Part shown: in pieces, positions 1 through 52,781 of the stretch
How positions within the stretch are numbered: the stretch's first letter is position 1
Layout of the letters: every line of letters begins with the position of its first letter
Virus record (IMG/VR): IMGVR_UViG_3300045988_071817
Span: 1-52,781 of that record
Reading direction: 5' to 3' (one strand)
Source of the DNA: a virus
Length of the DNA stretch: 52,781 nucleotides
Program-made: the position numbers and the translations under genes
Notes under the pieces: generated by a model
Seen by the model: the letters and a program-made list of their open reading frames with translations, nothing else
Databases searched by the model: none
What the model was told of the DNA's origin: nothing

Positions 1-99
1 ATAAACTTTCATATCTTTGTACCTCTTTTCTTTTTTAACTTCTGAATACAGTGTACCATATTGTAACACATATGTAAATAGTAAATTTAAAAAAAAAAT
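1..99. repeat. Terminal overlap identical to 52683-52781 (circular contig closure or terminal redundancy)
   Basis: Both ends compared by eye and match 99/99. The copy covers the first 4 codons of the 52128-52694 gene, its leader and promoter, and an A10 tract. Confidence 0.95.
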
Positions 100-2351
100 T
101 AAAAATCTATACTGTCACCATACCAATTTCGAGTAATATCACAGTCACATCTAAATGGTAATTTGATTAGATGACTCGGGGCTGTTCTCATTAAATAAGA
201 AAGCCTTTCACTTGCTTCTTTCATATTCTCTTCTGGACATTCGCCTATAACTTCATCGTGTACCTGTATTAATAAGTGAAAATCAAGTTCTTTCATCTTT
301 TCGTCATTATTAATTGCTATCATTGCCAGCTTCGCCATATCCGCTGCAGAACCTTGTACTCTAGCATTAACACACTGTCTTTCCGCCTGTGCTATATACC
401 CGCCATTATCTTTTATCTTGATTCCTTGCGATAAAGCTTGCTGTATTATTTGATTTTTCTTCTGCCAGCCGTATGCTCTTTCCAGCTGTTTAATATAACT
501 TTTTTTAACGCTTTCAGGGACTTCAACGGAAACACTCTTACCGAAAGCCAATGGGTCAAAATTAGTTACATTCCCACTATAACTGAAATCATACTGGTCT
601 AATTGCATATCCTTGAGGTGTCTACGTCTTCCCCAAGCAGTAGTCACATATCCTAACTCTTTAGCCATTCCCTGTGATTCGTCAATGAATTGGGCTAACT
701 GAGGAAAAGCTCTTAACACAGCATCATATATATCCTGAGCTTCTCTGGTTGATACTCCTAATTGTTCGGCAATGGATGGAATTTGTCTTCCATATAAAAT
801 ACCCAATACGATGCTTTTTGCCTGTGTTCTTCTTTCTTTACCTGCTGGATTTACTGTCCCATCTTCCCTAAACTCCAAGCATTCTTCGTAAGGTTGATGA
901 AAGGCTAATCCTGCGATTGTAGCATATATATCTTTTCCGTGAATGAAAGCATCTTGCATTTTCTTATCATTCGATAAATGAGCCGTAACCATTGGTTCCT
1001 GCTGGCTATAATCTGCACCAATTAATACATATCCATCTTGAGCCTTGAACATCTTTCTAATCTCTTTATTGTGTGATGGGATATTCTGCAAGTTAGGGTC
1101 ACTAGAGCTAAATCTACCAGTTTTTGCGCCGTATTGATTATAGCTTGCGTGTACTCTACCATCATCAAGAGCAATCTGTGGCATCTTGTCTATATAGGTA
1201 TTAAGCAACTTATCCACATTTCTAATTCCTAATATTGCTTCGCATATGTTCTTTTCTTTACCCTTAGCGAAATGTTTCAATATTTCTTCACCTGTACCTC
1301 TAGGTGATTTCTTATCAGGGCTTGTAAGTCCTAAAATATCATAAAATAAAATCGCTAATTGTGTTGGGCTTGTTAAAGAAATAGGGTCGGATAGCTTATG
1401 GTTAGGATTCTTCATCTTATAATTATCAATTTGTTCCTTATACATTGATATCGCTTCGTCTGCTTGTTGCTGTCTTTCTTCCTTAATCTTATGATATTTT
1501 TCGTGTAGGTATTCACACACCTCAGAATCTAGGCATACTCCTCTATCTTCCATATCTGCCACAACTGTAATCAATGGCATTTCAATATTCTTAAATACAT
1601 TATAAGGACCAGATAATACTCTTCTATTCAATAAGCCTTTCTGATACTGATAAAGTTCATAAGTCTTAATAGCATCGCCTGCGGCATAAAGATAAGCAAC
1701 CTTTATTGGAACTAAATCAAATGTAATTCCTCCGAATAATTTATCGAATGTGAGGGATTCAGTGTCTGTGCTGTCACAATATTTCAAATGCAAGTCTTTA
1801 AGTCTATGACTTTCATTTTCGTCTATACAGCACGCACCTAACTGCGTATCCCAATAAGGTTCAATATATACTCCCAATGTATGTCTAAGCACTCTTATAT
1901 CATATTTAGCATTGTGGAATATCCACTTTACATCTTTTAATTTATTAAAAAACTCAATTAAATCCTTTAATTCTATTTGATTATTTACTTTTTGCCCTGT
2001 GATGTGTGACTTATGTCCTACAGGTATATAGGCTGATTTTTTTCCTGGAACATACAAACACACGCCGACCAAGTCAACCAATAAAGGATTCAATCCTGTT
2101 GTCTCTGTATCTATAGCACACTCTTCGGCGTCTGCTATAGCCTTTCTATATTCTTCTAATTCTTCAACAGTTCTGATAAGAATATAATCGTCCTTATGAT
2201 GTGCCAATTTAGATTCGGCAATCATTGTCATTGTCTGAATTTGTGAGGCTAAATTTGTTCCTGTGCGAACTGATGTTCTTGTTTTAGCATTTTTAGCTTT
2301 ATTGACTATATTCTTATCTTTAACTGTTTTTCTTGCAAAAGATAGAGCCAT
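99..2351 (-). CDS. Family A DNA polymerase (Pol I-like) with 3'-5' exonuclease domain
   Basis: 750 aa. Exo motif AIDTETTGL. Pol motifs DYSQQEP (A), RRTQAKSIVLGILYG (B) and QVHDEV (C). Confidence 0.95.
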   Translation of the reverse strand: MALSFARKTVKDKNIVNKAKNAKTRTSVRTGTNLASQIQTMTMIAESKLAHHKDDYILIRTVEELEEYRKAIADAEECAIDTETTGLNPLLVDLVGVCLYVPGKKSAYIPVGHKSHITGQKVNNQIELKDLIEFFNKLKDVKWIFHNAKYDIRVLRHTLGVYIEPYWDTQLGACCIDENESHRLKDLHLKYCDSTDTESLTFDKLFGGITFDLVPIKVAYLYAAGDAIKTYELYQYQKGLLNRRVLSGPYNVFKNIEMPLITVVADMEDRGVCLDSEVCEYLHEKYHKIKEERQQQADEAISMYKEQIDNYKMKNPNHKLSDPISLTSPTQLAILFYDILGLTSPDKKSPRGTGEEILKHFAKGKEKNICEAILGIRNVDKLLNTYIDKMPQIALDDGRVHASYNQYGAKTGRFSSSDPNLQNIPSHNKEIRKMFKAQDGYVLIGADYSQQEPMVTAHLSNDKKMQDAFIHGKDIYATIAGLAFHQPYEECLEFREDGTVNPAGKERRTQAKSIVLGILYGRQIPSIAEQLGVSTREAQDIYDAVLRAFPQLAQFIDESQGMAKELGYVTTAWGRRRHLKDMQLDQYDFSYSGNVTNFDPLAFGKSVSVEVPESVKKSYIKQLERAYGWQKKNQIIQQALSQGIKIKDNGGYIAQAERQCVNARVQGSAADMAKLAMIAINNDEKMKELDFHLLIQVHDEVIGECPEENMKEASERLSYLMRTAPSHLIKLPFRCDCDITRNWYGDSIDF

Positions 2352-2606
2352 CTAACTGAATATATCCTTCAAAATATCGTGTAATAAGTGACCTTCTGGA
2401 AATAATTGCTTTGCTATTTTGTGACGTTCTTCAGGGTCTTTTCTGAGCTCTTCTTCACTCATAAATCCTTCAGCAATAGCTTCTTCGAGGTCCTTCTTAT
2501 CTAAAATATTATGCTTATTAAATGTATATATCAATGTACTTAATTCTGCCTGAATTTCAACCAGTGTCCCCCCTAACTGTATTTTTCCACCTTCAACAAC
2601 TATCAT
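2352..2606 (-). CDS. Hypothetical protein (84 aa)
   Basis: Its stop abuts the polymerase start. GGAGG-like site (gaggaggaaatatat) lies upstream of the ATG. Confidence 0.75.
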   Translation of the reverse strand: MIVVEGGKIQLGGTLVEIQAELSTLIYTFNKHNILDKKDLEEAIAEGFMSEEELRKDPEERHKIAKQLFPEGHLLHDILKDIFS

Positions 2607-2621
2607 ATATATTTCCTCCTC

Positions 2622-3278
2622 TTAATATGTTACACGTCGACTTGTTCTTCTTGAACCACCTTCACGTCTAATAGGTTCATTATTTCTGCGACGTTCTGAT
2701 ACATTATCATTATTATTATCTTCCTGTGGGAAAGAGCCTGTATTAAGGTAAGTCATCATTTCATCTGGTGTCTTATCCAAAATAAATGAACCTAAAAATT
2801 CAGGCTTTTCAATTTCACTTAAATCAACTGGTTCCACATCTGGCATTGGGAAAATCTCGTACTGAGTTTTTTTGTCACCCTTTGCCCCTCTTCTTTCAAT
2901 TTCAAAAACCATATTAGAAAGATTAGGATATCTATTGAATAATGCTTCAATCTTCTTAATGAATGTCTTACCTCTTTCCCAGATTTTAACCTTTCCATCT
3001 GCGTGGTCATACATAGCTAGAATCATTACTGGTTTAATTGGAATACCTGCTTCACACAGTGGACAAGCATCCAATGGGTCATCATATGTTCGTTTACAAT
3101 CTACATATCTTTCTGTATCCCCAATCTTTACTTTATGACAAACAAATGCATCTAAATCTGTATATTTGTCATACAAAAACTGCACTCTTGCCACATCACC
3201 ATCATTCTGTAATTTAAGCCACTCGCTTGAATTACCACTTGAATATTTGTCAATATCGTTTACATCAATTCTTCCCAT
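2622..3278 (-). CDS. Single-stranded DNA-binding protein, T4 gp32-like (zinc-containing)
   Basis: 218 aa. The H-X12-C-X10-C-X2-C block (CHKVKIGDTERYVDCKRTYDDPLDACPLC) nearly matches the gp32 His64/Cys77/Cys87/Cys90 spacing. Acidic/basic disordered C-tail. Lies next to the polymerase. Confidence 0.6.
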   Translation of the reverse strand: MGRIDVNDIDKYSSGNSSEWLKLQNDGDVARVQFLYDKYTDLDAFVCHKVKIGDTERYVDCKRTYDDPLDACPLCEAGIPIKPVMILAMYDHADGKVKIWERGKTFIKKIEALFNRYPNLSNMVFEIERRGAKGDKKTQYEIFPMPDVEPVDLSEIEKPEFLGSFILDKTPDEMMTYLNTGSFPQEDNNNDNVSERRRNNEPIRREGGSRRTSRRVTY

Positions 3279-3377
3279 CTTTTTCTCCTTTCTTATCGTG
3301 TGGGTCTTGTTTATCTTTTAGGCATATTCACAGCTTTATTCTGCCTTTATCCCATTATTTTATATGCTGGTAGGAAA

Positions 3378-47507: not shown

Positions 47508-47927
47508 TTAATAATAAAATCTTTTCCCATCAACAATCTTCCAATGCTTCTTTTTATTCGCTTGTCTTCGTATAGCAATATTATTATAAGTATTATTATG
47601 TAATGAGCTACACCATTCTAAATTTCTAATATCATTATTTTGTTTATTTTCGTCTTTATGGTTTATCACATTATAATCATAAGGATTATCAATAAAAGTT
47701 ATAGCGACTAATCTATGCACCAGATAGCTTGTACTTTTACCGCATTTTCGCAGTACCACTGTTAAATAATTATCTTTCCTAACACCAGCTTTTAATATTT
47801 TAGTTTTTAATTTTTGAACACTACGATTTCCTTTATAAGAATATCTTTCAAGTGACTTCACTCTGCCCTTATTACTAACCCGATAAAGACCTTCATAACC
47901 TGGTATATCTTTCCATATCTCTTGCAT
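47508..47927 (-). CDS. HNH homing endonuclease (NUMOD4 + HNH_3), paralog of 4700-5275
   Basis: MQEIWKDIPGYEGLYRVSNKGRVKSL and INHKDENKQNNDIRNLEW. Confidence 0.85.
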   Translation of the reverse strand: MQEIWKDIPGYEGLYRVSNKGRVKSLERYSYKGNRSVQKLKTKILKAGVRKDNYLTVVLRKCGKSTSYLVHRLVAITFIDNPYDYNVINHKDENKQNNDIRNLEWCSSLHNNTYNNIAIRRQANKKKHWKIVDGKRFYY

Positions 47928-47959
47928 TATAATATCTCCTTAAAAATACAAAGTAATAA

Positions 47960-48751
47960 TTAAACTTTTTTACATATTCCTTTATAATTGCAAAATCTAC
48001 AATTTTTTGTATTTTCTGTCTTAGGCGGGGCTATCATACGTTCGACATAACCTTCGCATTCGTTTATATAATTCACAAGCCAATCTTTCATATCTTGTGT
48101 AATTTCTATGTGAGGACACTCCAAAGTACATATATCACGATTTTCATACAGAACGAATGCTTTATCTAAATCAAGTGCTGTGCAGTAGCATATAATCTGA
48201 TTCATATGCTGTTCCAATGGTTTATCTTCAACTTGATTATATTTGAAAGAAACCACGTTTTTCATCTCGAATAAGAAATACTCATTGGTTGATATTCTTC
48301 TTATGATACCATCACAACGGAAAGAAATATTCAAAGCTGTATCTATAAGGTGTGTTTCAGCTCCAACTGTTTCCTTCACCTGTAAAGTCCTGCATTTTCC
48401 AAATTCTTGTTTCTTCCTCACATATTCAGCTACATCTACATATTCCCAATCATAGCCCATTTTCTGCATAGCTAACAAAGCTTCCTGAATAGCTTCGTGG
48501 CGTCTTGTACCAGTGTCAGCCATACCTGTTGAATTATATTCCACTAACTGCTCATCTTGTGGAGCCTTTGTTCTCGTGAAATACATATTTCGCATACAAT
48601 GTAGGGAAGACGGTTTATACCAATTAGAACCTCTTCTCCTATGTTCTTTTTCTCTTCTTTCAATACAACTCATTAAATCAACCAGGAACTTCTTATTTGC
48701 TGGAAGTTCCTGTTGACTGTTGTTTATTAAATTTAATAATCTCCTACTCAT
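47960..48751 (-). CDS. PD-(D/E)XK exonuclease, Cas4/RecB-like with a 4-Cys cluster
   Basis: N-terminal Cys (SSLHCMRN), D...EMK core and C-terminal CRFCNYKGIC. Confidence 0.7.
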   Translation of the reverse strand: MSRRLLNLINNSQQELPANKKFLVDLMSCIERREKEHRRRGSNWYKPSSLHCMRNMYFTRTKAPQDEQLVEYNSTGMADTGTRRHEAIQEALLAMQKMGYDWEYVDVAEYVRKKQEFGKCRTLQVKETVGAETHLIDTALNISFRCDGIIRRISTNEYFLFEMKNVVSFKYNQVEDKPLEQHMNQIICYCTALDLDKAFVLYENRDICTLECPHIEITQDMKDWLVNYINECEGYVERMIAPPKTENTKNCRFCNYKGICKKV

Positions 48752-49003: not shown

Positions 49004-49043
49004 ATAAAAAATAAAATAGCCACCTTGATATACAAGATGGCTA
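49004..49043 (-). terminator. Intrinsic terminator after the sliding-clamp gene
   Basis: Stem TAGCCAcCTTG/CAAGaTGGCTA (10 bp with one mismatch) followed by TTTTATTTTTT on the minus strand. Confidence 0.75.
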
Positions 49044-49116
49044 CCTTTACGAATTATATAAAGAAAAGAGTTTTACAGATTTATCACTCATATATTTTAG
49101 TATACTAAATTAATAT

Positions 49117-50208
49117 TTAATTTGCAAGTTCTTCATCTTCAAGTAATGCAATAACCTGAATTACCTTTCCACATTCCAGCTTCAAGGCATTTTCATTGCC
49201 GTACCAGAGCTTGACCGTTTCCTCTGGGTAAGCTTGTAACTGTTCTTTCAACATTGGAATATCCACACAACAAACAAAAGGTTCAAAGTCCTTGCTCTCA
49301 ACATAGTTAATGGTCTCTGTTGATGCATCTTTCTTACTATGAATATTTATTCCCTTTCTACCGAAAGTGAAATAAGCTCCATTCTTATCATAAGGCTCTA
49401 TGAATAAGGATAATCTGTCTAATACAGATAAGAGTAATTCCTTAGGCACTTTACAAGATGAAGTGAAAGCAACATCTAAATATGCCCCGATTTCTTCAAC
49501 TGGGAAATCTTCAATTCCTTCCATAAGGCTTCCTTCAATTACCTGTGATTCTGTAGCGAATATGATTGTTTCCTGGTCAACTGTGACCTTAATATCTTCT
49601 TCCTTATATAAGGTTAATAATTGCATCTGCTGTGCTGAAATTAATAAAGGTCCAAATTCTTCTGTGAACATTCTAAAGTTGTTAAAGGTAATAACATTGG
49701 CATCTGTAGTGATTACCTTGTCATCACAGTAATAACCTGTAAGAGCTGGATTCTCTAAGGTTTTAGCTAAGGCTGACTTATTAATATTATAAGCTTGCAG
49801 TATGCTGGATAACTTAACTGTTGACCAATCTTCTGTCTCTGATGTGTTGCTTCTAATATCAGGGAAAGATACAAGTCCATCTTCATCGGAAATCAATGGA
49901 ATCTTATAAGTTCCGTTCCCCCTAACAGAAAGTACATCATCCTTCACAGATAAATCAATATCTTCCGAAGTTGTTTTGGCAATCAACTTTCCAAACTTAT
50001 CTGCATCTACTGTGATGTCCATCTCGTCTCCAGCTACTTTGTCAATGATAATACATAGTGTATTAGTCATATCTGTTGTGAGTAATCTCAACTTTCCATC
50101 CGATAATTTAATACCCAACATTCCTGTTATAGGAATTAAATTATTGAAAGACGCTCCCTTAATTGCCTTATTTGTTGCTTCTTTGAATCTCTGAGTTGCT
50201 AATTTCAT
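49117..50208 (-). CDS. Sliding clamp (DNA pol III beta / DnaN-like)
   Basis: 363 aa. The N-terminus KGASFNNLIPITGMLGIKLSDGKLRLLTTDMTNTL follows the DnaN pattern, and the length fits three domains. Confidence 0.75.
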   Translation of the reverse strand: MKLATQRFKEATNKAIKGASFNNLIPITGMLGIKLSDGKLRLLTTDMTNTLCIIIDKVAGDEMDITVDADKFGKLIAKTTSEDIDLSVKDDVLSVRGNGTYKIPLISDEDGLVSFPDIRSNTSETEDWSTVKLSSILQAYNINKSALAKTLENPALTGYYCDDKVITTDANVITFNNFRMFTEEFGPLLISAQQMQLLTLYKEEDIKVTVDQETIIFATESQVIEGSLMEGIEDFPVEEIGAYLDVAFTSSCKVPKELLLSVLDRLSLFIEPYDKNGAYFTFGRKGINIHSKKDASTETINYVESKDFEPFVCCVDIPMLKEQLQAYPEETVKLWYGNENALKLECGKVIQVIALLEDEELAN

Positions 50209-50228: not shown

Positions 50229-51011
50229 TTATATATTATGATAGCCAACAATCCATAATAAATCGCCAGGCTTCAAGAACTTTTTACATTTTCCTTCATA
50301 GATAGGGTCAAGTTTAATCGCACCAACACATTCATTTGTGCGAGTTGTATAAACATACTTAGGCTTAACCCCGCTAATATAATCTACAATTTTATATGGT
50401 ACTTTATTAAAAAGTTTCGGCACAAGATTATTAATAACTTTTTTTGAATTACTACTTCCAGTAATCACACCAATAACTTCTACATCGGTACGACGTATCT
50501 CATTAAGCCCTTGGATAATACCAAGCATTGTGCAGCCACTACCAACTGGAACCACAACACGATGAACACATTCTGGGATATTATATACTTGTTTAGCGAC
50601 TATATCTATATTTTTTTTACACAACATCCCAAATGGTATAAAACATTTACTATGAACCTTAGAATAATTCATTGCTCGGGATATTAATACATTCGTATAT
50701 GAACCTTGTTTCAACGTATCTATAATTTCGCAGTTTGCTCTTTTTTTGATGTTTAATGTAACACTCGTATCTTTCCCCGACGGCATAAATAAAAAACATT
50801 CTACACCTAAACTAGAGCAAATTTTAGATACTATATCACATTGAGGAGAAAATCTGCTACCGACTGTAACAAAACCTGTATAGCCTTTTTGTATTCCATC
50901 TTGTATAATATTGAAAGCACCCTCAGCTTTTCCCCCACAGGCACCACCATATTCCAGTAAATCGCATCTTTTCACATAGTACCCATCTACATAATCAATT
51001 CTTGCTAACAT
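50229..51011 (-). CDS. Fold-type II PLP-dependent enzyme, ACC deaminase / D-cysteine desulfhydrase-like (short, 260 aa)
   Basis: Blocks align to E. coli DcyD as recalled: VKRCDL/KRDD, GGACGGK/GGNK (Lys kept), VVVPVGSGCTMLG/VVVASGSAGT, VIGVITG, LDPIYEGK/LDPVYTGK. Confidence 0.6.
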   Translation of the reverse strand: MLARIDYVDGYYVKRCDLLEYGGACGGKAEGAFNIIQDGIQKGYTGFVTVGSRFSPQCDIVSKICSSLGVECFLFMPSGKDTSVTLNIKKRANCEIIDTLKQGSYTNVLISRAMNYSKVHSKCFIPFGMLCKKNIDIVAKQVYNIPECVHRVVVPVGSGCTMLGIIQGLNEIRRTDVEVIGVITGSSNSKKVINNLVPKLFNKVPYKIVDYISGVKPKYVYTTRTNECVGAIKLDPIYEGKCKKFLKPGDLLWIVGYHNI

Positions 51012-51988
51012 ATTATATCCTCAAAACTTCCAAATTTATTTTTGATATGCTTAGTATTTCCTTTATAAAATACAAGTACATTCTGATGTTGTTTTCCGAT
51101 TTTCCTAGACGCATTAAACTGAATCGGCGCTCTTACTGGCAATGTACCCGCAACATTTACTAATATTAGCTCATTGTAATAAATAGCCCCTGCATTCTGC
51201 ATAATACGCACTGTATCACCTGCAAAATCATAATATCCAGAATCTGTTTTATTTCGAATATTACCTACAACAATCACTGCAAAGCTATCATCCTCTAACA
51301 TTTGTACACAATTAGTTAGTATATTTTTATAAATATCTGTAAATTCATCGTAAGTGCTAAGATTAGATATATCCGCTGGGTCATCACTATACACCTCTAA
51401 ATCATAATAAGGTGGACAAGTAAGTAAGAAATTATACTTTTCTTCCCTATGCTCTTTAGTGTATGCGGCACTATCTGCATTTATCCAATTCACTTCAGGA
51501 AGTTCATTAGAATATCTTGCACAAATATCTTTAAACTGTGATATATTATAATCTATTTGTTTCTTACTTAAATCTATACCAGTATAATGTCTTCCACATA
51601 CACTGGCGACAATACCACGAACACTTCCGCCTGCAAATGGGTCGATAACCCTATCGCCGTCTCTTGAGAACCACTTATAAGCTATTTCGCACAGTACAGG
51701 GTCAAATATTGATGTAGCTTGAACCTTTCTTCCATACTTATCCCCAATACTTTCAGGATTACATTTTCCATAGTTTGTTTTCTTTTGTTCATCCATAGGG
51801 GTTATATCTAAATTAAAAGTTAGGTTGTCACCTCTACCGAGTTCACTTTTAATCCCAATAGATTTCCACATATTAACACGTTCTCTCCAGTATCCTTGTT
51901 TAGAATCTAATATGCTAAATGGTGGAACAATAAAGCGGTCTTTCAATAAGTTGCTCGGAATCTTTCGTTTAACTGATATTAAAGCCAT
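51005..51988 (-). CDS. DNA amino-methyltransferase (N6-adenine or N4-cytosine)
   Basis: Start set at MALISV (RBS AGGAGGtgtatataATG). SAM motif I VIDPFAGGSVRG precedes motif IV TCPPYY. SIFDPVLCE block is typical of DNA MTases. Confidence 0.75.
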   Translation of the reverse strand: MALISVKRKIPSNLLKDRFIVPPFSILDSKQGYWRERVNMWKSIGIKSELGRGDNLTFNLDITPMDEQKKTNYGKCNPESIGDKYGRKVQATSIFDPVLCEIAYKWFSRDGDRVIDPFAGGSVRGIVASVCGRHYTGIDLSKKQIDYNISQFKDICARYSNELPEVNWINADSAAYTKEHREEKYNFLLTCPPYYDLEVYSDDPADISNLSTYDEFTDIYKNILTNCVQMLEDDSFAVIVVGNIRNKTDSGYYDFAGDTVRIMQNAGAIYYNELILVNVAGTLPVRAPIQFNASRKIGKQHQNVLVFYKGNTKHIKNKFGSFEDIIC

Positions 51989-52127
51989 TATATACACCTC
52001 CTAAAATTCATCATAAATAAATGGGGACTCTTTATATTGTATTTTTACCCGATTAGCAAATTCTAAAGCATTCCCAAGTATGCAAAAACTTCTAAACCCC
52101 TTTGACCATTTAACTATTATCTTACCC

Positions 52128-52694
52128 TTATTCATAATCTTTCTCCTTCTCACATATAATATCCAGCACATTAGCTATATCTTCATTTTTAACATAAAAA
52201 CTTATCTCATTAGTGTCACCTGAAAATCTATCAATATACTTAGCAATAATATCCGATATTAAACTATAATACTTATTAGGCATATAAACTCTTATAGAAT
52301 TTTTACGCTTATATACATAAGCTAGTCGCTTTTTCTTATCGTCACTTATATAAAGGCTAATCATACTAGCATTTCTTTTATATGTTAATCTGCCAGCAAG
52401 AAGTGATTCAACAGTATCTAATAAGTTTTTAACTTCTTTTTCTCTACTTCTTTTTTTGTCAACAGATTTTTTATCTGTAGTTTCTGCATTAGTATTTAAG
52501 ACAACATCCTCTTCTTCAACAGCCTCTTCTTCAATTTCTTTCCACCATCTTTTCATAGTAGAAGCTGAAAAAGAAGTTGTTTTACCCTTTCTATCACCTG
52601 TGATAAATTCTACCATATAGGTCTTAAATCTTTCATTGTACTCTACTAATTTTACCTTAACTGTTTCGTCTTTTCTTGACACATAAACTTTCAT
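52128..52694 (-). CDS. Hypothetical protein (188 aa) with an acidic/basic central linker
   Basis: Start set at MKVYVSRKD (RBS aagaggtacaaagatATG). The longer GTG-initiated ORF runs through the promoter. Confidence 0.7.
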   Translation of the reverse strand: MKVYVSRKDETVKVKLVEYNERFKTYMVEFITGDRKGKTTSFSASTMKRWWKEIEEEAVEEEDVVLNTNAETTDKKSVDKKRSREKEVKNLLDTVESLLAGRLTYKRNASMISLYISDDKKKRLAYVYKRKNSIRVYMPNKYYSLISDIIAKYIDRFSGDTNEISFYVKNEDIANVLDIICEKEKDYE

Positions 52695-52781
52695 ATCTTT
52701 GTACCTCTTTTCTTTTTTAACTTCTGAATACAGTGTACCATATTGTAACACATATGTAAATAGTAAATTTAAAAAAAAAAT
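52683..52781. repeat. Terminal overlap identical to 1-99
   Basis: 99/99 identity with the window start. Confidence 0.95.
52732..52761 (-). promoter_or_regulatory. Promoter-leader cassette copy (TTTACA-N18-TACACT), duplicated at 50-79
   Basis: Shares the tatgtaaatagtaaatttaaaaaaaa block with the 4576-4625 copy. Its -10 box is weaker. Confidence 0.4.

Follow-up and report, generated by a model that had tools for sequence, protein, structure and literature searches.

In Pseudomonas phage M6 and Salmonella phage ViI, gp52 and gp226, respectively, are pyridoxal 5′-phosphate (PLP)-dependent decarboxylases of amino acids that have previously been joined to thymidine in DNA (Lee et al. 2021, PMC8989533), and their family also occurs fused to the enzymes that install those amino acids (PMC8989533). 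Here we describe two adjacent genes of a viral DNA of 52,781 nucleotides (IMG/VR record IMGVR_UViG_3300045988_071817, positions 1 to 52,781; the window), which encode an N6/N4-type DNA amino-methyltransferase-like protein and a compact fold-type II PLP enzyme that is homologous to M6 gp52. An initial annotation of this DNA had offered three roles for the pair: a two-step base modification, an auxiliary metabolic function directed at cysteine, H2S or 1-aminocyclopropane-1-carboxylate (ACC), or the destruction of a small-molecule signal or cofactor. Comparative genomics best supports the first of these, with a chemistry that is predicted. We tentatively favour a pathway in which an amino-acid side chain derived from S-adenosylmethionine (SAM) would be attached to DNA, where the PLP enzyme would then tailor it.

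Hypermodification of phage DNA with the help of a PLP-dependent tailoring enzyme is already known; the methyltransferase-linked form described here is widespread and appears to be new. To our knowledge, the known amino-acid-derived hypermodifications of phage DNA all start from 5-hydroxymethyl pyrimidines, and Iyer et al. in 2013 reportedly predicted phage modifications “derived using modified SAM derivatives”. No description of a methyltransferase–PLP module was found in the searchable literature, and an earlier computational note, perhaps in a 2013 survey, may exist. A sequence of reactions similar to the one proposed here operates in microcin C biosynthesis, where MccD and the N-terminal domain of MccE provide SAM-dependent transfer of a 3-amino-3-carboxypropyl (acp) group by a methyltransferase fold, followed by PLP-dependent decarboxylation to aminopropyl. 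The likeness is one of logic; the microcin C substrate is a peptide-nucleotide and not DNA, and the PLP domain there has a different fold. In the phage CmoA/CmoX/CmoY carboxymethylcytosine pathway, a DNA methyltransferase homologue moves a non-methyl group derived from SAM, a second enzyme elaborates it, and ParB-domain proteins are often encoded nearby; this pathway differs from the present module in its donor, carboxy-SAM produced by CmoA, and in its reliance on a methyltransferase of the C5-cytosine fold together with an AMP-forming ligase, and no PLP enzyme takes part (PMC12783734).

The PLP enzyme and its methyltransferase partner

All genes of the window lie on the minus strand, as do the gene features given below. 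The methyltransferase gene (51005–51988, 327 aa) ends with a TAG at 51005–51007, and its start is placed at the ATG at 51988 and not at a GTG at 51997 because of a Shine-Dalgarno sequence, GGAGGTG, read at 51995–52001. The PLP gene (50229–51011, 260 aa) runs from an ATG at 51009–51011 to a stop at 50229. At the junction (51005–51022), its Shine-Dalgarno sequence, GAGGA (51018–51022), is located 6 nt upstream of the ATG, within the end of the methyltransferase gene. The methyltransferase stop had been described as overlapping the PLP start codon; the reading frames do overlap, by 7 nt (ATGTTAG), but the two codons share no bases, the TAG lying 1 nt past the ATG. Junctions in relatives with the same gene order measure −7, −4, −1, +3 and +4 nt.

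The PLP protein scores above the cut-off of Pfam PF00291 (41.4 bits against 35) and matches phrog_3650, a family of unknown function. Its AlphaFold2 model is confident (predicted local distance difference test score, 92.9), and the best Foldseek matches of the model in the PDB are Salmonella D-cysteine desulfhydrase (DcyD; 4d9e/4d8t, E 6e-15) and 1j0a, an ACC-deaminase homologue from Pyrococcus (TMq 0.80), with ACC deaminases coming next. These results confirm the fold-type II assignment made earlier from conserved motifs, all of which are present: KRCDL (residues 14–18), GGK with K28, VPVGSGCT (154–161) and LDPIYEGK (234–241). In profile alignments K28, S55 and Y238–E239 correspond to K51, S78 and Y294–E295 of ACC deaminase, so that the Schiff-base Lys is kept (codon 50928–50930) together with the active-site Ser and Tyr (Y238–E239 codons, 50295–50300), and VPVGSG aligns with the phosphate loop. 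The Schiff-base Lys, this loop and the catalytic residues are invariant across the PLP family. Comparison with ACC deaminase and DcyD structures (1f2d, 1tzk, 4d8t, 1j0a) shows the same fold (Foldseek E 6e-15, TMq 0.75–0.80) with K51, S78, Y294 and the phosphate loop conserved. The Tyr motif reads YEGK in the PLP family and in ACC deaminase 1f2d, and YTGK in DcyD 4d8t and in 1j0a. The residue that follows the Tyr is therefore acidic in the PLP family and in true ACC deaminase, as it is in M6 gp52, and Thr in DcyD; we take this residue to contact the PLP ring nitrogen and to favour carbanion chemistry. At the C-terminus, hhalign sets a nearly invariant V255 opposite the Thr of a DcyD-like protein, which may mark the position that is Leu322 in ACC deaminase and Thr in DcyD.

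Despite the shared fold, the protein falls far below the cut-offs of the cellular families, both the equivalog cut-offs for ACC deaminase (23.4 bits against 392 for TIGR01274 and 24.5 against 550 for NF010646) and the subfamily cut-off for D-cysteine desulfhydrase (30.3 against 289.4 for TIGR01275). With 260 aa and shortened termini it also departs from the full-length architecture of TIGR01275 (about 325–340 aa): compared with ACC deaminase and DcyD it is ~70 aa shorter, lacks the N-terminal ~23 aa and the C-terminal helix, and has shorter loops. The initial annotation, which had noted this difference in length, read it as truncation. Because all of the homologues are equally short (246–295 aa), we regard the protein instead as a member of a distinct compact clade, in which short length is a family trait. 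Among the cellular genomes of 185,579 species only 12 loci of the family were found, 7 of them linked or fused to a methyltransferase, and a viral structure library gave just two clear matches, one to a protein of a Serratia phage and one to an unnamed viral protein of 810 aa that is presumably a fusion. The family is a compact, phage-restricted branch that is almost absent from cellular genomes and, unlike ACC deaminase and DcyD, is usually fused to a DNA methyltransferase.

Comparison with M6 gp52 reveals homology to an enzyme proven to act on DNA. An hhalign comparison of the window PLP family with M6 gp52 gave 97% probability (E 1.2e-10, 236 columns), and a phmmer search with M6 gp52 alone retrieved 21 members of the methyltransferase-linked PLP family (best E 3e-7). 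Both proteins are compact (278 aa for M6 gp52, 260 aa for the window protein) and have an N-terminal Schiff-base Lys (K36 and K28, respectively), a conserved Ser and a Tyr followed by an acidic residue; both end just past a W-x-[IV]-G strand (...VFWNIGE in M6 gp52, ...LLWIVGYHNI in the window). The PDB entry 1j0a, a top structural match of the window protein, also served as the template on which ViI gp226 was modelled (PMC8989533). The differences are considerable: identity to M6 gp52 is only ~19%, the partner in the window is a SAM-dependent methyltransferase-like enzyme and not a 5-hydroxymethyldeoxyuridine (5-hmdU) DNA kinase with aGPT-Pplase, the window has no 5-hmdU pathway, and action of its PLP enzyme on DNA is a prediction. 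Isoelectric point was considered as a discriminator and discarded, as the value for the window protein is 9.2 (against a proteome median of 6.1) but that for DNA-acting M6 gp52 is 6.5.

The partner protein scores above the cut-off of Pfam PF01555 (44.0 bits against 26.7), matches PHROG 12517/498 (phrog_12517, E 8e-91) and is modelled as a standard class I methyltransferase fold with SAM motif I, in agreement with its earlier designation as a DNA methyltransferase. Motif I, DPFAGGS (51623–51643), is invariant in the family and precedes motif IV, CPPY (51407–51418), and a conserved N-terminal block reads RFxVPPFSVL. Motif I and the PPY of motif IV are shared with PF01555 methyltransferases such as TTHA0409 and with ParB-methyltransferase fusions of prophages such as BCE_0392, from which the window protein differs in the placing of motif I ahead of motif IV, in its RFxVPPFSVL block and in a motif IV that begins with Cys and not with D, N or S, in departure from the canonical (D/N/S)PP(Y/F). 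CPPY is found in 117 of the 120 nearest homologues, as in the window, and in nearly all PLP-linked copies. The family has at least 8000 homologues. Some relatives carry an N-terminal ParB domain; the window protein has no match to PF02195 (ParB/Srx) and aligns to residues 163–453 of Mycobacterium phage Vincenzo gp1, past the ParB domain of that protein. It differs from the ParB-methyltransferases in the absence of ParB, and relatives accept an insertion of 250–700 aa between helix B and strand 3. A 188-kb contig encodes three tandem paralogous genes related to this family (L102:4001-6857) and no PLP gene.

Linkage and fusion of the two genes

A pattern scan of IMG/VR yielded 80 loci with a PLP homologue, onto whose open reading frames (ORFs) the window proteins were mapped; the genes were considered linked when a CPPY methyltransferase of the same family was fused, adjacent or within 5 kb. 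By this definition a methyltransferase is linked to the PLP gene in 63 of the 80 loci, and the adjacency seen in the window is therefore a conserved property. The proteins are fused in 39 loci, with the PLP domain placed between the two halves of the methyltransferase in 31 of these; 13 loci have directly adjacent genes on the same strand, in both orders, and in 11 the genes lie within 5 kb without being adjacent. The remaining 17 loci have no methyltransferase of the CPPY family within 5 kb. Linkage at this level is far beyond chance and implies that the two proteins belong to one pathway.

The pairing was also traced among 1.84 billion representative proteins (50%-identity clusters, E ≤ 1e-30), where the PLP family occupies 632 clusters. 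Classification of the best 147 of the 632 gave 68 insertions into the methyltransferase, 57 stand-alone PLP proteins, 11 C-terminal fusions and about 5 N-terminal ones. The three topologies are independent fusion events, and both motif sets are invariant in the fusions (DPFAGGSVRG and CPPY in the methyltransferase; K, S and Y-E in the PLP domain). Both partners have intact active-site motifs, and their genetic and physical coupling extends over hundreds of phage lineages. The pairing had been called unusual, and this is accurate for cultured phages, in which a tblastn search found the PLP family in only 6 of 50,697 records, but not for metagenomes, with their 632 clusters. Among the cultured carriers, Mycobacterium phages Vincenzo and AlanGrant have a PLP gene that overlaps a ParB-methyltransferase gene, Pseudanabaena phage Pam4 has a PLP domain inside an 829-aa protein that also carries a methyltransferase, and in Staphylococcus phage Alsa_1 a methyltransferase is encoded three genes upstream of the PLP gene.

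Where no CPPY methyltransferase is present, the surroundings of the PLP gene can differ. In one such locus (L039:3576-4977) it follows genes for a ThyX-like (Thy1) protein and a NUDIX hydrolase, a context that hints at a nucleotide-level modification route.

A proposed SAM-derived modification and its alternatives

The reading that we favour is that the methyltransferase and PLP genes would form one functional module that modifies phage DNA after replication. The methyltransferase-like enzyme would place a SAM-derived group on a DNA base, namely the acp group of SAM, replacing or accompanying the methyl group. The PLP enzyme would then bind the α-amino group of the DNA-borne amino-acid side chain and remodel it, most plausibly by decarboxylating it, in analogy to M6 gp52, so as to leave a 3-aminopropyl group with a positive charge, and the modified bases may shield the DNA from host nucleases. 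A 5-hmdU pathway was considered for the window and rejected: no thymidylate-synthase-like hydroxymethylase, DNA kinase or aGPT-Pplase is encoded there, which bears out the initial annotation on the absence of an hmdU synthase and kinase, and no 5-hmdU DNA kinase or aGPT-Pplase occurs among the recurrent neighbours in 95 loci. With no genes of this type in the window, SAM is left as the one evident donor of an amino-acid group, from which we infer acp transfer followed by decarboxylation; the use of acp by the methyltransferase, the base that would receive the group and the decarboxylation by the PLP enzyme are all at the level of prediction.

The favoured pathway accounts for the fusions, for a PLP step that is patchy and optional, and for the SAM synthetases and amino-acid or carboxylate enzymes that join the module in relatives. 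A mini SAM synthetase of 264–265 aa is encoded immediately upstream of the methyltransferase in two close syntenic relatives of the window (L096:3205-3999 and L099:3186-3983); it matches only the N-domain of MetK in Pfam, above the cut-off, but still has the GHPDK and GGGxHGKDxSK motifs. In a third such relative (L101:5862-7877) the methyltransferase–PLP pair is directly followed by a gene for a full-length, 671-aa SAM synthetase, whose GGG...GKD motif is interrupted by an intein-like insert. A TET-associated DNA glycosyltransferase (PF20691, E 3e-38) is encoded two genes upstream of the methyltransferase in L099 (2289-3146) and is also present in L005 and L006, with no TET/JBP gene visible in the flanking sequence covered. 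A QueC/TtuA-like PP-loop protein with an SGGKDS motif and a C...RCGxCxKC metal site is found in three loci (L008:5763-6833, L010:3932-4972 and L003:4400-5008); in L008 and L010 its gene separates the methyltransferase gene from the PLP gene, in representative P0265 it is a domain inserted beside the PLP domain within the methyltransferase, and Alsa_1 gp34 corresponds to its C-terminal half only. In a single representative (P0240) an Asp/Asn β-hydroxylase domain is inserted beside the PLP domain, inside the methyltransferase. An LPG_synthase_C-like aminoacyl-transferase domain is inserted in the same manner in P0244, as a weak match, and a gene of this kind that scores above the Pfam cut-off neighbours a PLP gene without CPPY methyltransferase in L061. 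P0212 has an additional N-terminal methyltransferase domain. The window itself encodes none of the SAM synthetase, glycosyltransferase, PP-loop, hydroxylase and LPG_synthase_C-like proteins of its relatives.

These associations allow a broader proposal, which we consider possible but doubtful. It would make the module part of a combinatorial, SAM-derived family of hypermodifications, in which acp placed on bases is decarboxylated by the PLP enzyme and elsewhere hydroxylated, amidated, aminoacylated or glycosylated. Such a family would be independent of 5-hydroxymethyl pyrimidines and would extend over gut phages, mycobacteriophages and cyanophages.

Two further observations concern the surroundings of the PLP domain. 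A Cys-rich domain of ~185 aa (NCT...CxxxCC...C...GC...TC) follows it within the fused proteins P0187 (residues 608–799) and 13 other representatives; PDB searches with this recurrent domain and with the neighbours in L061 gave no match. An apparent MetK beside the module in the jumbo contig L021 proved to be an artefact, the similarity arising from a homing-endonuclease/intein segment of an NrdD gene.

Several findings weigh against the favoured pathway. Its weak point is that the methyltransferase sequence has no feature that marks acp transfer over methyl transfer. Among proteins of solved structure, those closest to it in sequence are conventional N4-C/N6-A DNA methyltransferases, and the ParB-methyltransferase BCE_0392, which may belong to the family, produces weak N6-methyladenine (m6A) in E. 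coli (PMC3459991). The Cys of CPPY was considered as a covalent nucleophile or persulfide carrier, a role that is unsupported, as it aligns with the Ser of TTHA0409 (PDB 2zie; TSPPY in place of CPPY, in a stretch of strong local similarity that surrounds motif IV) and is shared by the whole family, including members without a PLP gene; it is an isosteric replacement of the Ser in SPPY. Members of the methyltransferase family greatly outnumber those of the PLP family, and cultured phages such as Enterococcus phiFL3A, Listeria B054 and Clostridium phiCTP1 encode the methyltransferase without a PLP gene. On the side of the PLP enzyme, hhalign places its family at an equal distance from a cellular DcyD-like protein (E 1.9e-12), and on sequence comparison it is about as far from cellular ACC deaminase and DcyD as from phage M6 gp52. 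The PLP insertion point in fused relatives falls in the loop between helix 142–158 and strand 166–170 of the methyltransferase. In a Rossmann fold a loop of this kind faces away from the SAM pocket, and direct channelling between the two sites is therefore not implied. Finally, the PLP gene is patchy among close relatives. In a syntenic comparison of eight members, the window included, it is present in those with 72%, 59% and 55% identity and absent from those with 64%, 61%, 54% and 51%, so that presence and absence are interspersed. The PLP enzyme is thus an accessory to a methyltransferase that works alone, with a chemistry that is independent of it.

The last two points, together with the ACC-deaminase-like site (YEGK), suit the main rival explanation, in which the methyltransferase makes ordinary m6A or N4-methylcytosine (m4C) and the PLP enzyme serves as cofactor housekeeping, acting on a free amino acid of the SAM cycle in a role parallel to that of phage SAM synthetase on the supply side. 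SAM and S-adenosylhomocysteine (SAH) are themselves α-amino acids; the PLP enzyme could, for example, cleave inhibitory SAH or homocysteine to 2-oxobutyrate and ammonia and so sustain bulk methylation of the genome, and 2-oxobutyrate is both the product of ACC deaminase and the γ-elimination product of SAH. An insertion site away from the SAM pocket fits a diffusible substrate, and the PLP gene is now present, now absent beside a methyltransferase that varies little. Close relatives moreover have, around the same methyltransferase, MetK alone, the PLP gene alone or the two together. What housekeeping leaves unexplained is the presence of an Asp/Asn β-hydroxylase, a QueC-like carboxylate-activating enzyme, an aminoacyl-transferase-like domain and a DNA glycosyltransferase in the same polypeptide or operon, as well as the 17 PLP loci without a CPPY methyltransferase. 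Fusion is the usual state of the PLP domain and was never seen for MetK, and we know of no PLP-dependent SAH lyase of fold-type II. We consider this explanation unlikely, yet it is the only form in which the earlier suggestion of small-molecule or cofactor destruction survives, as a process centred on SAM and SAH.

A second alternative, considerably less probable, is suggested by the PP-loop proteins: the PLP enzyme would be a cysteine desulfhydrase or deaminase that provides sulfide or ammonia for base thiolation or amidation by a PP-loop ATPase, with the methyltransferase acting on the same base. The placement of the PP-loop gene between the methyltransferase and PLP genes (L008, L010) or in fusion with them (P0265) fits this scheme, as do its best matches, QueC and the tRNA sulfurtransferase TtuA, the IbrA-like 3′-phosphoadenosine 5′-phosphosulfate (PAPS)-reductase/DUF3440 gene that neighbours the methyltransferase in L097, and D-cysteine desulfhydrase as the top structural match of the PLP enzyme. 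A PP-loop partner is found, however, in only 3 of 95 loci and in 1 of the best 147 representatives; the window has no PP-loop motif, and its YE motif is that of ACC deaminase and not of DcyD. The least probable explanation, a stand-alone metabolic or counter-defence enzyme that breaks down some free small molecule (D-cysteine, ACC or a host signal) and is paired with the methyltransferase through operon packing only, draws on the family-level similarity to ACC deaminase and DcyD and on the 17 of 80 loci without a linked CPPY methyltransferase, but is contradicted by three independent fusion topologies, by PLP domains fused to or inserted in the methyltransferase in most representatives, which also make the proposed auxiliary metabolic gene for cysteine, H2S or ACC very unlikely, by near-absence from cellular genomes (12 loci, 7 linked or fused) and by NCBIfam scores far under the cut-offs (23 against 392 for ACC deaminase, 30 against 289 for the DcyD family).

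If the favoured pathway, acp transfer followed by PLP-dependent tailoring, is correct, SAM and a methyltransferase fold would constitute a second, independent entry into DNA hypermodification. A function would follow for PHROG 3650, for hundreds of large “methylase” fusion proteins and for a PLP clade that now carries wrong annotations (threonine dehydratase, ACC deaminase or nucleoside deaminase). New restriction-resistant bases would also be predicted, with effects on sequencing, cloning and phage therapy. The cultured carriers, Mycobacterium phages Vincenzo and AlanGrant, Pseudanabaena phage Pam4 and Staphylococcus phage Alsa_1, make the hypothesis testable.

Gene order around the module

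The ends of the window share a direct repeat of 99 nt (52683–52781, identical to 1–99), and a near-identical IMG/VR contig (94–98%) joins window positions 3328..1 straight to 52778... The contig is thus either circular or terminally redundant, and position 1 of the window is an arbitrary point. On closure of the circle, the DNA polymerase gene (99–2351; phrog_17, E 7e-143) comes to neighbour the module on its upstream side. The placement of the pair as second and third gene of a first early transcription unit resulted from linearising the circular contig. Downstream, the sliding-clamp gene (49117–50208; phrog_947, E 4e-34) begins 20 nt from the PLP gene, in conserved synteny. A terminator-like hairpin after the clamp gene (49013–49047) is the only such site in the region, a number within chance expectation, and likely marks the end of the transcription unit. 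The replication block accordingly reads polymerase, a 207-aa ORF, methyltransferase, PLP gene and sliding clamp, followed by the hairpin, and the order polA, methyltransferase, PLP gene, clamp recurs in L098, L099 and L101. A promoter scan gave promoter-like matches at chance frequency, and a megablast comparison of the region with cultured phages gave no match.

Between the polymerase and methyltransferase genes, the 207-aa ORF (52128–52751), which has no family match, and a 56-aa ORF (52001–52171) are both absent from L098 and L097. In L097 (4967-7282), the place of the PLP gene, directly downstream of a methyltransferase with 61% identity, is taken by genes for an IbrB-like ParB and an IbrA-like PAPS-reductase/DUF3440 protein. 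The window encodes an HNH endonuclease (phrog_59) beside a Cas4-like exonuclease (phrog_1706; 47508–48751) shortly after the clamp operon. The family A DNA polymerase gene, a single ORF of 750 aa in the window, is divided into 2 or 3 ORFs in L096:891-3208 and L101:898-3959, possibly as a result of mobile insertions.

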